From the NCBI GenBank assembly GCA_003213165.1, contig QCNO01000002.1, positions 7,237-71,236 on the forward strand: DNA of 64,000 nucleotides, written 5' to 3'. Under the pieces are notes generated by a model. The model searched no databases and was not told the origin of the DNA. It saw only the letters and a program-made list of their open reading frames with translations. The translations under genes were made by a program, and so were the position numbers. The stretch comes from OCS155 cluster bacterium AG-426-D23 (lineage in GTDB: Bacteria; Actinomycetota; Acidimicrobiia; Actinomarinales; Actinomarinaceae). This document shows, one piece after another, positions 2,063 to 54,387 of the stretch (position 1 is the first letter of the stretch; the number at the start of each line of letters is the position of its first letter).

Positions 2063-2797
2063 CTAATTTATATTTCTTAATATCACATATAAACCAGAAA
2101 AAATAGAAAAATAAGTCACGGATGCAGACAAAAAACTCTGAGAAACTTTAGAAAAAATTAAGCTTGATAATCTAATTCCTAAAAAAACAAATGGGATATT
2201 GATCAAAAATAAATAAATGTGATCAATATAAATCCTTCCAGTAAAAGCAAGCAAAGACAAAGTGATTATTATTCCAATTATAAAAACACTATTTAATGAT
2301 GGTCTAAATTCGTCTGGATCAGTATCTCGATACAGAAGAGCAACTGGAGGGCCTCCTATTGCGGCAATCATTCCAAAAATTCCAGAAAATGTACCACCTA
2401 TAAAAGAATTAGTTTTGTTTCTTTTTATAACCCATCCAAAAAAAGAAGCTAGTCCAGCTAAAAAAACTATTAGACCTACAGAAATAGAAAGGTATTTTTC
2501 ATTTAATATTGATAAAAACAATAAACCAATTGGTCCCCCAACAAACCTACCTGCAACTAATGGTTTAACTGAACTTAAATCAACCCTGTTTCTTTCTCTT
2601 ATAAATACTCGAATTGCTAACGGTAAACCCAGTAGAGATAAGAGTTGAGGAACTAATAGAGCTTCAATCTGTACAACTATAGGTGATGCTATAACAGCAA
2701 ATCCAAATCCTAGTATTCCTTGAACTGATGATCCTATAAAGATTAATAAAGCAATAAAGATTAATTCAAAAAGGGTAAGTTCAAAAGGTAGACTCAA
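2063..2797 (-). CDS. Sulfite exporter TauE/SafE family membrane protein
   Basis: About 8 TM segments with GxxGFGFA and IGGPP motifs. TTG start overlaps the stop of the upstream selenoprotein gene. Confidence 0.8.
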   Translation of the reverse strand: MSLPFELTLFELIFIALLIFIGSSVQGILGFGFAVIASPIVVQIEALLVPQLLSLLGLPLAIRVFIRERNRVDLSSVKPLVAGRFVGGPIGLLFLSILNEKYLSISVGLIVFLAGLASFFGWVIKRNKTNSFIGGTFSGIFGMIAAIGGPPVALLYRDTDPDEFRPSLNSVFIIGIIITLSLLAFTGRIYIDHIYLFLINIPFVFLGIRLSSLIFSKVSQSFLSASVTYFSIFSGLYVILRNIN

Positions 2798-3030
2798 TCA
2801 AGCGCTTCTTCTATGAGCTTAAGAATCTCACCATCCTCAGTATGTCTACCTAGTTCTTTTTTTGAAAATAATAAATTGTCATTTAGGTGGAACTCAAATA
2901 CTCCTCCACCACTTGGAATTAAATTAATCGAGGTTACTTTGTTTCCGTAAATTTCTAAGATATCTTCTATCGTACTAACTGCACGAGGGGTGTAGTTTCA
3001 GACTACACAAAACTCTAATTTTATTTCCAT
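2794..3030 (-). CDS. SelW/SelT/Rdx family selenoprotein, 78 aa, CxxU motif (in-frame UGA at 2998-3000)
   Basis: Hand translation: MEIKLEFCVV[UGA]NYTPRAVSTIEDILEIYGNKVTSINLIPSGGGVFEFHLNDNLLFSKKELGRHTEDGEILKLIEEALD. Rdx hallmarks CxxU, LIPxxGGxFE and FSKKxxGR continue past the UGA. Confidence 0.9.
2970..2986 (-). promoter_or_regulatory. Putative bacterial SECIS element
   Basis: 17-nt hairpin UCGUGC-AGUUA-GUACGA starting 11 nt after the in-frame UGA, with GU at loop positions 2-3. Confidence 0.7.
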
Positions 3031-3066
3031 AATTTAATAGTATCATAACTTAGATTAAGGAGGTTT

Positions 3067-5331: not shown

Positions 5332-5541
5332 ATGAATGTTGTATTTACAGTTCCTGAAATCAGTTGTGGTCATTGCAAAGATACGATTGAATCTACATTA
5401 AGTAATGTTGAATCTATAGAAAGTGTTTCAGTTGATATTGAAAAGAAATCAGTTGAGGTTTTCTCGTCTTCTGATATTGACATGATAAACGTATCTCAAC
5501 TGTTAGATGAACAAGGCTACACAGTTGTCCAGTCAGAATAA
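5332..5541 (+). CDS. copZ: Copper chaperone, HMA domain
   Basis: ISCGHC motif, 69 aa, directly upstream of a Cu-ATPase. Confidence 0.85.
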   Translation: MNVVFTVPEISCGHCKDTIESTLSNVESIESVSVDIEKKSVEVFSSSDIDMINVSQLLDEQGYTVVQSE

Positions 5542-7600
5542 CACACTAAATTTAGACATTGAGGGTATGACATGTGCTGCATGTGCTGCCCGAATAGAGC
5601 GAGTAATCTCAAAACAAGAAGATGTACTAGACGTATCTGTAAGCTTTCCTCTAAAATCTGCAATTGTTGATATTAAAAACAATGAAAGGTTTGATGTTGA
5701 TAATTTAATTAAGAAAGTAAATACTATTGGTTACAAAGCAAAAGAAGCAGACAGTCTTAGATCAAACAAAAAAGTTAAGTTTAAATTTGTTATACCTTTC
5801 TTATCATTATTGCTAACTTATATTCTTAGATTTATATTTGAGGCTGGACTTGATGTCTTATCTTATGCAATAGGCTCATTTGTTATATTGATACTTGGTA
5901 GAAATTTTCATATTTCTGCTTTTAAAAAAATTAAATATCTTGATTTTAATATGGATACACTAATTTCAATTGGTAGCTTAAGCGCGCTTATTATTTCATT
6001 ATTACCAAACACTGTACTTGGTTCAGATTTATCAATCACAAATAATAAAATGTTTCTTGATACTGGTGCTTTCATAGTTTCGTTTATCTTAATTGGTAAA
6101 GCAATAGAAGATAAGGTCATAGAAGAATCTGTAAATGAATCTGAATCAATAAAAAGTAAGATGCCTAAAACTTTAATTGTTGAAAGAAGTGGGCAAGATC
6201 TTGAAGTGCCCATTAAAGAGGTTGTAGTTGGTGATTCATTTAAAGTAAGTCCTGGAGAAATTATTCCTGTTGATGGTCTTGTTTTTGAGGGCTCAACAAC
6301 TGTTGACGAAAGTTTATTAACTGGAGAATCAATTCCTCTAGTCAAAAAATCTGAAGATTTAGTTGTAGGTGGAAGTATAAATTTAGATGGTGCAATTAAA
6401 GTCTCTGTCCAAGAGTCTTACCAGAAATCTACCTACAACATAATTGAAGAATTAATTAGAACGGCTCAAGCAACTAAACCAGAAATTCAAAAATCATTGG
6501 ACAAAGTAACTCAATACTTTGTTCCAATTGTTCTAATAATTAGTGTTTTGACTTTTCTATTTAGATTCTTTATAAGTGATTTTGCGTTGTTAGATGCCTT
6601 AAAAAATTCAATAGCAGTTCTTGTAATTGCATGTCCTTGTGCATTAGGCTTAGCAACTCCAATAGTGTTGTTTAAAACTGCAACTCTGAGTAAAAAAGAT
6701 GGATACTTATTTAAAAATTTCGATATTTTACAAAAATTTGGTGATATAAATACTCTTATTTTTGATAAAACAGGCACTCTTTCTTCTGGTATTTTTAAAA
6801 TATCAAAGATCGAAAACAACAACACTTCTCTAAATGAAGATACCATTTTGCAAATTATTGCAAGTCTTGAAAGCTATTCTCAGCATCCGATTGCAAGAAG
6901 TATTGTTTATGAGGCAGAATTACGAGATTTGAAATTACTTAAAGCTAATGATGTTAAGGAGGTTCCTGGCTTAGGCATACAGGGAATAGTCGATGACAAA
7001 AAAATTGTCATTGAAAAAAATGAAGATTCCAATGAGTCTTCAATCATTGTTAAAATTGACGACGAAAAAATTTACATCTACTTGGAAGAAGAAGTATCCG
7101 TATCATCAAACTTCTTAGATGTACTAAGAGATGAAAAAGAAATAATTATTCTTTCTGGAGATAAAGAAGTTAATGTTGAAAAGTTTGCTAAAAGTATTGG
7201 GATAAAACAATATCATTCAAATAAAACCCCAGAAGCAAAATTAGACTTCATTAAAAATAAACAACTAGAAGAAAAAATTATATATGTTGGAGATGGAGTA
7301 AATGATTCCCCTTCAATAAAACAAGCAGATATTGGTATAACTACCTCTAGTAGTAGTCAAATAGCACAGGTAGCTGGAGATATTTTAATTCACAAGGGAG
7401 GTTTAGACACGATATCTGATATTTTTAAATTATCAAAAAAATCTAAAAGTAGAATCTATCAAAATCTATTCCTTGCTTTTGTTTACAACACCTCGATGAT
7501 TCCATTAGCTGTGTCTGGGGCAATTACACCAAACTTAGCAGCTTTGGCTATGGCACTATCAAGCATTTCAGTTGTGTTAAATTCATCAAGAAAACTATAA
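5507..7600 (+). CDS. copA: Copper-translocating P1B-type ATPase
   Basis: GMTCAAC, TGES, CPC, DKTGT, HP, GDGVND, YN and MALSS motifs. Confidence 0.9.
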   Translation: MNKATQLSSQNNTLNLDIEGMTCAACAARIERVISKQEDVLDVSVSFPLKSAIVDIKNNERFDVDNLIKKVNTIGYKAKEADSLRSNKKVKFKFVIPFLSLLLTYILRFIFEAGLDVLSYAIGSFVILILGRNFHISAFKKIKYLDFNMDTLISIGSLSALIISLLPNTVLGSDLSITNNKMFLDTGAFIVSFILIGKAIEDKVIEESVNESESIKSKMPKTLIVERSGQDLEVPIKEVVVGDSFKVSPGEIIPVDGLVFEGSTTVDESLLTGESIPLVKKSEDLVVGGSINLDGAIKVSVQESYQKSTYNIIEELIRTAQATKPEIQKSLDKVTQYFVPIVLIISVLTFLFRFFISDFALLDALKNSIAVLVIACPCALGLATPIVLFKTATLSKKDGYLFKNFDILQKFGDINTLIFDKTGTLSSGIFKISKIENNNTSLNEDTILQIIASLESYSQHPIARSIVYEAELRDLKLLKANDVKEVPGLGIQGIVDDKKIVIEKNEDSNESSIIVKIDDEKIYIYLEEEVSVSSNFLDVLRDEKEIIILSGDKEVNVEKFAKSIGIKQYHSNKTPEAKLDFIKNKQLEEKIIYVGDGVNDSPSIKQADIGITTSSSSQIAQVAGDILIHKGGLDTISDIFKLSKKSKSRIYQNLFLAFVYNTSMIPLAVSGAITPNLAALAMALSSISVVLNSSRKL

Positions 7601-21888: not shown

Positions 21889-21962
21889 CACGCCCGGAGG
21901 GAGTCGAACCCCCAACCTTCTGATCCGTAGTCAGATGCTCTATCCAGTTAAGCTACGGGCGC
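21889..21962 (-). tRNA. tRNA-Arg(ACG)
   Basis: Cloverleaf, anticodon arm TCTGA-CTACGGA-TCAGA, GTTCGA T-loop. Confidence 0.95.
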
Positions 21963-21966
21963 TTTG

Positions 21967-22053
21967 CGGAGAGGGAGGGATTCGAACCCTCGAGGGAATT
22001 GCTTCCCCACTCGCTTAGCAGGCGAGCACTTTAGGCCACTCAGTCACCTCTCC
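21967..22053 (-). tRNA. tRNA-Ser(GCT)
   Basis: Anticodon arm CTCGC-CTGCTAA-GCGAG, long variable arm. Confidence 0.95.
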
Positions 22054-22060
22054 AAGTACG

Positions 22061-22146
22061 CGGAGGGAGTGGGATTCGAACCCACGGTATGGAATACATA
22101 CAATAGTTTTCAAGACTATCGCCTTCGTCCGCTCGGCCATCCCTCC
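22061..22146 (-). tRNA. tRNA-Ser(TGA)
   Basis: Anticodon arm ATAGT-CTTGAAA-ACTAT, long variable arm. Confidence 0.95.
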
Positions 22147-22160
22147 AGATGGTTTTTACG

Positions 22161-22249
22161 CGGAGGGAGAGGGATTCGAACCCTCGAAGGGGATAAACCC
22201 TTACACGCTTTCCAAGCGTGCGCACTAGGCCAGACTATGCGATCCCTCC
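22161..22249 (-). tRNA. tRNA-Ser(GGA)
   Basis: Anticodon arm CACGC-TTGGAAA-GCGTG, long variable arm. Confidence 0.95.
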
Positions 22250-30878: not shown

Positions 30879-30951
30879 TGGAGATGATGGGACTTGAACC
30901 CACGACCCCCTGCTTGCAAAGCAGGTGCTCTTCCAGCTGAGCTACATCCCC
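30879..30951 (-). tRNA. tRNA-Ala(TGC)
   Basis: GGGGATGTAGCTCAG..., anticodon arm CCTGC-TTTGCAA-GCAGG, G3:U70. Confidence 0.95.
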
Positions 30952-31039
30952 TCGCCTTAATATTATGCCCTTGATATGAGAGTAAATGAAAAAAAAATTT
31001 AAATATTTCTTTTAATAGACTATTGTTAATTAGACATAT

Positions 31040-31114
31040 GGGCCTATAGCTCAGCCTGGTTAGAGCGCATCCCTGATAAGGATGAGGTCGTTAGTTCAAA
31101 TCTAACTAGGCCCA
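31040..31114 (+). tRNA. tRNA-Ile(GAT)
   Basis: GGGCCTATAGCTCAG..., anticodon arm CATCC-CTGATAA-GGATG. Confidence 0.95.
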
Positions 31115-54203: not shown

Positions 54204-54289
54204 TATTTCCTTTCTTACCTTGAGAAAATAGAGAAACTTCAAGAATTTCTAGAAACTTCATTCCTTCTCTCGAGGACTGTTGTTTAAAC

Positions 54290-54370
54290 AATAACGAAGG
54301 CGACCTGACTTATCTTTCGATTCACAGTTGCGGGACAGTGCTAGAATTCCACTAGCTTCGCTCCATTATT
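54290..54370 (-). ncRNA. Cobalamin riboswitch (compact)
   Basis: Minus strand GAAGCTAGTGGAATTCTAGCACTGTCCCGCAACTGT...AAGTCAGGTCGCC; closing helix AATAATGGAGCGA / TCGCCTTCGTTATT. Confidence 0.88.
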
Positions 54371-54387
54371 CTTGAAATAGTAGCAGG

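Follow-up and report, generated by a model that had tools for sequence, protein, structure and literature searches.

Does a short reading frame that is interrupted by UGA within a redox motif encode a selenoprotein in the marine actinobacterium Candidatus Actinomarina? This question is raised by a locus in contig QCNO01000002.1 of the genome AG-426-D23, from which a 64,000-nucleotide (nt) stretch, here called the window, was analyzed; all gene coordinates given without a contig name are window positions. With a probability of about 0.93, the locus is a functional Candidatus Actinomarina gene for a 78-residue SelW-like protein with the motif Cys8-x-x-Sec11, whose UGA is decoded as selenocysteine (Sec) by the canonical bacterial route. 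The gene, the conservation of its UGA, a covarying hairpin, the Sec machinery and the fold were all obtained by computation. UGA codon 11 very probably encodes Sec, and the family to which the protein belongs suggests a small thiol/selenol oxidoreductase. The features are listed in Table 1.

A SelW-like gene with an in-frame TGA

The minus strand reads from an ATG (3030-3028) through nine sense codons to a TGA (3000-2998) and, after 67 further sense codons, to a stop TGA (2796-2794), and the motif around the first TGA is C8-V-V-U11. The table-11 list of open reading frames (ORFs) of at least 40 amino acids (aa) contains no minus-strand ORF over 2798-3030, and the sole ORF listed across the gene region is one of 45 aa on the plus strand (2813-2950). 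Ordinary gene calling would therefore miss the SelW-like gene. Among 19 distinct sequences of the genus, first positions varied in four of the 10 codons 5' of the TGA, second positions in one and third positions in eight, and almost all of the changes were synonymous. This third-position-biased variation is a coding pattern, and the codons before the UGA are translated.

Family and structure searches were carried out with U treated as C in the query. The protein matched the Pfam family Rdx (PF10262) over residues 3-74 with an E value of 6.1e-16 and 58.8 bits (cut-off 22.6), as well as NCBIfam TIGR02174 CXXU_selWTH with 48.9 bits (cut-off 34.2). The thioredoxin-like fold of SelW has the order strand-helix-strand-strand-strand-helix. 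The AlphaFold2 model of the protein, computed from a 14-sequence alignment with a predicted local distance difference test score of 95.6, consisted of strand 2-8, helix 14-31, strands 34-40, 45-49, and 52-56, and helix 68-77 (E-H-E-E-E-H), with CxxU placed between the first strand and the first helix. The best Protein Data Bank (PDB) matches of the model in Foldseek were all bacterial SelW-related proteins, namely 2fa8 (TM score 0.89, root-mean-square deviation 1.4 A) followed by 2obk, 3dex, 2ojl, 2oka, and 2p0g, with TM scores of 0.83-0.89; MIEN1, mouse SelW (2npb, TM score 0.68), and thioredoxins ranked lower. A sequence search of solved structures returned 2fa8, 3dex, 2ojl, and 2p0g, and aligned U11 with the second Cys of CTQC in 2fa8. 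The protein shares its domain, length class, fold, and the site of the redox motif at the end of the first strand with Atu0228 of Agrobacterium (2fa8), which is Rdx/SelW-like. The solved bacterial Rdx structures have CxxC, whereas the Actinomarina protein, at 19-27% sequence identity to them and 78 residues long without an extension, has a predicted Sec at the second position.

The original prediction, which was made from the DNA letters, had described an ATG at 3030, a UGA at codon 11 on the second position of a CxxC/U motif and 67 more codons of Rdx-family sequence, missed by ORF calling. The translation agreed with it in all details, the ORF list indeed lacks the gene, and both family models were matched above their cut-offs. 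Its description of the organism as streamlined is also borne out by the assembly of this marine actinobacterium to which the window belongs (G000), which comprises 964 kb in 18 contigs at 86% completeness and 32.9% G+C.

Table 1. Positions of the SelW-like gene, its associated elements and the other predicted selenoprotein genes. Positions are those of the window unless a contig of the assembly (G000) is named. bp, base pairs.
Feature	Position	Strand	Evidence or remark
SelW-like (Rdx family) selenoprotein gene	2794..3030	-	Translation, family matches, fold, conservation; 78 codons plus TGA stop
Sec codon TGA (codon 11), second redox position of C-V-V-U	2998..3000	-	Genus conservation, 2fa8 alignment
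Bacterial Sec insertion sequence (SECIS) hairpin	2970..2986	-	Stem of 6 bp (2986-2981/2975-2970), pentaloop AGUUA (2980-2976); pairing and covariation
Possible second helix	2990..3008	-	7 bp (3008-3002/2996-2990); UGA in 5-nt loop
TauE/SafE-family membrane protein gene, 244 aa	2063..2797	-	PF01925, 72.7 bits; TTG start
SelD selenoprotein	G000 C8:14295-15335 (L010 1498-2538)	+	TGA at residue 12
CMD/AhpD-like, 186 aa, C-E-Y-U	G000 C1:38917-39474	-	Genus-conserved TGA
Secreted Redoxin/AhpC-TSA-like, 155 aa, U-G-L-C	G000 C1:249447-249911	-	Genus-conserved TGA
Membrane-anchored thioredoxin-like, 157 aa, U-L-G-C	G000 C4:1041-1511	+	Genus-conserved TGA

Conservation of the in-frame TGA

A six-frame search of 40 relatives, including 24 other genomes of the genus and other families of the class, revealed the gene in 22 of the 24 congeners. 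Every genus match had exactly one in-frame TGA at an identity of about 67-97%, and in each of the 23 genus loci the TGA fell on the U of CxxU, with the motifs CVVU, CIVU, and CITU. One TGA was also present in five of six matches from other families of the class. These class-level homologues, at 35-41% identity, all had CxxU (5/5; CAQU, CAVU, and CVPU), and the sixth match (L044) was a Cys form with the motif CTQC. A further collection of 30 named loci, assigned to Candidatus Actinomarina, Actinomarinales, Acidimicrobiia or Acidimicrobiaceae with a few broader or mislabelled names, had 68-97% protein identity and probably shares genomes with the 23-locus genus set; codon 11 was TGA in all 30.

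When 151 class genomes were searched with the profile, Rdx was detected in 67, belonging to 27 of the 81 sampled genera, with one TGA in 65 and none in two. Acidimicrobiia that possess the gene thus have, as a rule, the Sec form. Judging from these alignments, TGA at codon 11 is maintained by selection.

A covarying hairpin downstream of the TGA

The 17-nt hairpin begins 11 nt past the UGA. Its covariation was analyzed in 23 genus sequences (19 distinct) aligned without gaps. In the distinct sequences, all six pairs formed in 100% of cells. The outer pair, formed between the third position of a Pro codon and position 1 of a codon for Ile, Val or Leu, was U-A in 10 sequences, C-G in eight, and G-C in one. 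Two other stem pairs changed on one side (G-U to G-C, and G-C to G-U). The observed covariation score was reached by none of 500 column shuffles, and registers shifted by 1-3 columns gave pairing in just 14-47% of cells. In the 30 named loci, six of six pairs formed throughout, with the outer pair U-A in 21, C-G in eight, and G-C in one, and the loop was AGTTA in 21 and AGTTG in nine. Codons 16-18, which lie within the stem and loop, were invariant including their third positions, and 17 of the 24 codons downstream varied at the third position.

The high-G+C relatives in the class (35-41% identity) had a G+C-rich hairpin in the same register with the loops CGUGC or CGUGA, so that the predicted loops of genus and class relatives have N-G-U-N-N in common. 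In its minimal form, the SECIS of Escherichia coli fdhF consists of an upper stem-loop of 17 nt, placed 11 nt 3' of the UGA. Both hairpins are thus 17 nt long, start 11 nt past the UGA and carry G-U at loop positions 2-3, whereas that of Actinomarina has an AGUUR pentaloop, no evident bulged U and no extended lower stem including the UGA. The hairpin also has the features by which a bacterial SECIS was recognized in PMC1088965, that is, a stem-loop just 3' of the UGA with a G in a small apical loop.

The possible second helix, which encloses the UGA, paired in 93.2% of cells among the 19 distinct sequences, with one compensatory pair (G-C in 14, A-U in four), and it was broken in one sequence (L030). 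A similar 5-bp stem surrounds the UGA of the AhpD-like gene. This helix could be a by-product of codon choice.

Selenocysteine machinery

All genes of the Sec machinery were found outside the window in the same assembly. A profile search of the assembly identified SelA with 316.6 bits and SelD with 363.2 bits, the latter with its own in-frame TGA in the active-site loop. The gene for SelB (557 aa) overlaps selA by 4 nt, and its product has an EF-Tu GTPase domain and a winged-helix domain (PF09107, 42.1 bits vs 23.2). The tRNA-Sec scored 75.4 bits against a gathering score of 47 and was called tRNA-SeC with the anticodon TCA by ARAGORN. The genes selA, selB, selC, and selD thus occur together in one genome. 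In the proposed mechanism, SelD, itself a predicted selenoprotein, would make selenophosphate, SelA would convert Ser-tRNA-Sec to Sec-tRNA-Sec, and SelB would deliver Sec-tRNA-Sec to the ribosome, with its C-terminal winged-helix domain binding the 17-nt hairpin (6-bp stem, AGUUR).

Other selenoproteins of the genome

We scanned the genome for TGA-linked coding segments in otherwise uncovered DNA, with proteins of at least 55 aa; the scan was not exhaustive, and the assembly is incomplete as given above. Two earlier rounds, with 648 and 26 candidates, failed to recover SelW because its gap was occupied by a spurious antisense ORF. The thresholds were then tuned so that SelW and SelD passed, which gave 22 candidates, and five of these were chosen by redox motif for follow-up. 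The remaining 17 resemble either same-frame genes that adjoin each other or antisense frames of low complexity. On this sequence evidence, the genome has five predicted selenoprotein genes, namely SelW, SelD, one AhpD-like, and two thioredoxin-fold genes (Table 1).

The additional genes were compared among 31 genomes of the genus. The AhpD-like orthologues had one TGA in 28 of 29 match rows, and the exception was a fragment that stops before the Sec position. Orthologues with one TGA were found in 27 genomes for the Redoxin-like gene and in 26 for the thioredoxin-like gene. A stem with the loop AGUUA lies 16 nt past the UGA of the Redoxin-like gene and one with the loop AGUUG 26 nt past that of the thioredoxin-like gene, and the AhpD-like gene has a hairpin with a GGUC loop; no hairpin with a G-U loop was evident downstream of the SelD TGA. 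Hairpins with an AGUUR loop numbered 48 genome-wide compared to 55.6 in shuffles, and were not enriched. With 48 such hairpins in the genome, three of them just after Sec codons, their placement is therefore not due to chance, bearing in mind that the motif was first noticed on SelW.

The original prediction had supposed that the organism keeps the Sec machinery elsewhere in its genome and may have more hidden selenoproteins. The search for selA, selB, selD, and selC found all four in the assembly, and the genome scan for UGA-containing ORFs added four selenoprotein genes. Two observations had been named as decisive against a selenoprotein, an absence of Sec machinery and TGY in close homologues. 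Neither was made: the homologues keep TGA in 22 of the 24 congeners, in five of the six class-level matches and in 65 of the 67 Rdx matches of the class.

Alternative readings of the UGA

Several observations weigh against decoding of the UGA as Sec in a functional SelW-like gene. The match of SelB to TIGR00475 (positions 2-569) reached 199.9 bits and lies under the cut-off of 242, and that of the SelW-like protein to the equivalog NF041051 SelTWH_Campy reached 78 bits against a cut-off of 88, so the gene is not filed there. Part of the stem conservation is at the protein level, because the stem encodes the conserved R-A-V. Only the outer pair changes on both sides, and its CG-type forms come from related, not independent, sequences and may reflect one or two events. 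Folded singly, the sequence had an ordinary energy (z -0.37 for 101 nt compared to shuffles), and no family of Rfam, in which bacterial SECIS elements are poorly represented, matched the region at gathering thresholds. Finally, the SelW-like gene was not found in two of 24 congeners by the six-frame search and in three of 35 by the class profile search. The four genomes without a SelW match (G010, G104, G128, and G023) also had no match to the TauE and Lnt proteins of the window, and the SelW-TauE-Lnt block was either lost or unassembled in them; G010 retains the other three Sec genes.

The alternative that survives best is that the UGA is read mostly by a near-cognate tRNA (Cys or Trp) or mostly terminates translation, leaving the Sec form minor. 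Sequence gives no measure of how efficiently Sec is inserted, the UGA comes as early as codon 11, and SelB is divergent and under its cut-off. However, a complete machinery is kept in a genome of about 1 Mb, the covariation of the SECIS indicates selection on SelB binding, and five genes rely on the Sec system; we regard a minor Sec form as very improbable.

A second alternative is a decaying CxxC Rdx gene, in which the TGA would be a nonsense mutation or a sequencing error. Such a pseudogene would fit the absence of a gene by standard ORF calling, and Cys forms do exist, since two of the 67 Rdx matches of the class have no stop and L044 reads CTQC. Against this, the same codon is TGA in 23/23 and 30/30 genus loci at protein divergence of up to 33%, both flanks of the TGA are under coding constraint, and the covarying hairpin lies downstream. 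The conservation of the TGA in practice refutes this alternative, to which we give almost no weight.

Reassignment of TGA has occurred in small genomes of low G+C, and this genome is of that kind (32.9% G+C). A reading of TGA as a standard amino acid throughout (Trp or Gly, codes 4 and 25) is nevertheless extremely unlikely, as TGA terminates 121 of the 551 ORFs of at least 250 aa in the genome and the SelW-like gene itself in all 30 named loci, the tRNA with the TCA anticodon was typed as tRNA-Sec by two programs, and the genome scan placed in-frame TGA in only a handful of redox genes and did not reveal it at Trp or Gly sites in numerous conserved genes. TGA is an ordinary stop elsewhere, and there is no genome-wide reassignment. 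Decoding of codon 11 as Sec by the canonical bacterial route is accordingly retained as the best explanation of the locus.

Relation to previous reports

SelW-like proteins with CxxU were described as the most numerous selenoprotein family in Sargasso Sea data, with 48 genes (PMC1088965). In Global Ocean Sampling (GOS) data, as described in PMC2398784, the SelW-like family was likewise the most numerous with 427 genes, followed by SelD, Trx-like 1 and AhpD-like 1. A proposal made in PMC1794560 is that the SelW-like family originally contained Sec. The SelW-like sequences of the two surveys share with the present gene CxxU, an origin in marine surface water and a SECIS with a small G-containing apical loop, and the families heading the GOS list (SelW-like, SelD, Trx-like and AhpD-like) are those of the five selenoproteins found here. 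The survey sequences are described as unassigned reads, whereas the host here is Candidatus Actinomarina.

The preprint 'Actinomarina, resolved' (bioRxiv 10.64898/2026.04.03.716425, April 2026) reports in its main text that Sec is used throughout Actinomarina, with selC, selA, and selD in 84 of 84 complete genomes, a divergent selB, about five deep-Sep selenoproteins per genome and a Sec-form SelD. Its commonest selenoprotein family is a 78-aa one called 'uncharacterized', without a UniRef90 or KofamScan hit, which occurs in 59 of 113 genomes, with a related variant in 35 more; no significant Rfam SECIS hits are reported. The terms SelW and Rdx have no occurrences in the preprint text. Full-text searches for Actinomarina with selenocysteine or Actinomarinales with selenoprotein returned only this preprint. 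The terms SelW, Actinobacteria, Actinomycetota and Acidimicrobiia had no occurrences in the review PMC13188914, and the accessible part of Peng 2016 (PMC5029168) makes no mention of SelW.

The 78-aa family of the preprint and the present gene come from the same genus, agree in the length of 78 aa and the single Sec, and are the commonest there and near-universal here; the main text of the preprint gives neither a sequence nor a family assignment. Since the gene is 78 aa long and near-universal in the genus, it is very probably this uncharacterized family.

The gene is thus well supported but ordinary: its selenoprotein family has long been known, Sec use in its lineage has just been reported, and our knowledge of how Sec is decoded is unchanged by it. 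New here are the family assignment, the minimal SECIS supported by covariation, whose AGUUR loop is typical of the lineage, the five-member selenoproteome by family and the conserved overlap with the TauE/SafE gene. With this result, the annotation of a photoheterotroph that is among the most abundant in the surface ocean is corrected; the gene, skipped by callers, is conserved nearly genus-wide. The commonest selenoprotein of the preprint, 'uncharacterized' there, very probably also receives its family name, SelW-like/Rdx. The SECIS could be used to find further selenoproteins in Acidimicrobiia. SelW-like sequences have been the dominant signal in surveys of marine selenoproteomes since 2005, and Candidatus Actinomarina may provide a named host for some of them.

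The TauE/SafE neighbour and expression

The TTG start of the TauE/SafE gene overlaps the SelW stop by 4 nt (TTGA, 2797-2794), and this overlap was present in all 30 named loci. The next gene encodes an apolipoprotein N-acyltransferase (Lnt) with CN_hydrolase and LNT_N domains. The order SelW-TauE-Lnt was found in 53 of 53 genus-level loci (23 and 30 from the two overlapping collections). A search with the TauE protein of the window as query, and no profile, did not find TauE within 1.5 kb of SelW at five class-level loci. The gene order suggests that SelW and the TauE/SafE-type protein are made together. No literature joining TauE with a selenoprotein was relevant by title or abstract.

The KEGG entry K07090 is presumably that of TauE-type proteins. 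The third selenoprotein group of the preprint 'matches K07090', and predictions were assigned there to gene calls by same-strand overlap. Because of this mode of assignment, and because none of about 100 PF01925 matches in the 31 genus genomes has an in-frame TGA, we suspect that the group is the SelW ORF mapped onto the overlapping TauE neighbour.

Upstream of the SelW ATG, a conserved -10-like box was found at a distance of 7-17 nt (3037-3047, minus strand), and there was no Shine-Dalgarno sequence. A box so near the ATG, without a Shine-Dalgarno sequence, suggests a very short leader or none. A generic promoter and terminator scan gave six promoter-like sites compared to 6.7 expected, and no terminators, and is uninformative on this point. 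In four marine RNA libraries, which come from three studies, contigs covered the gene and spanned the SelW/TauE junction, with DNA carry-over possible. One of these contigs ends at 3057; the contigs are uninformative on transcript ends, strand and level, gaps in their cover carry no meaning, and they are a weak sign of SelW expression.

A more speculative proposal, which as a whole we think unlikely, is that SelW and the TauE/SafE-type protein form a translationally coupled module, that the divergent SelB reads an unusually minimal SECIS (17 nt, AGUUR), and that the helix with the UGA in its loop tunes competition with release factor 2. As part of this joint proposal, the substrate of transport would be an oxyanion of sulfur or selenium, or a sulfonate, which SelW would reduce or pass on. 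If true, the coupled module would be the first functional context for a bacterial SelW.

Other features of the window

An Rfam scan of the window detected an AdoCbl (B12) riboswitch at 54250-54386 on the minus strand (62.2 bits, gathering score 50). It also detected four clustered tRNA genes at 21889-22249 (minus strand) and two more at 30879-31114. At 5332-7600 on the plus strand, a 69-aa ORF with C-G-H-C overlaps the start of a 697-aa ORF with C-A-A-C and C-P-C. Going by these motifs, the pair may be a copper chaperone and a P-type ATPase.

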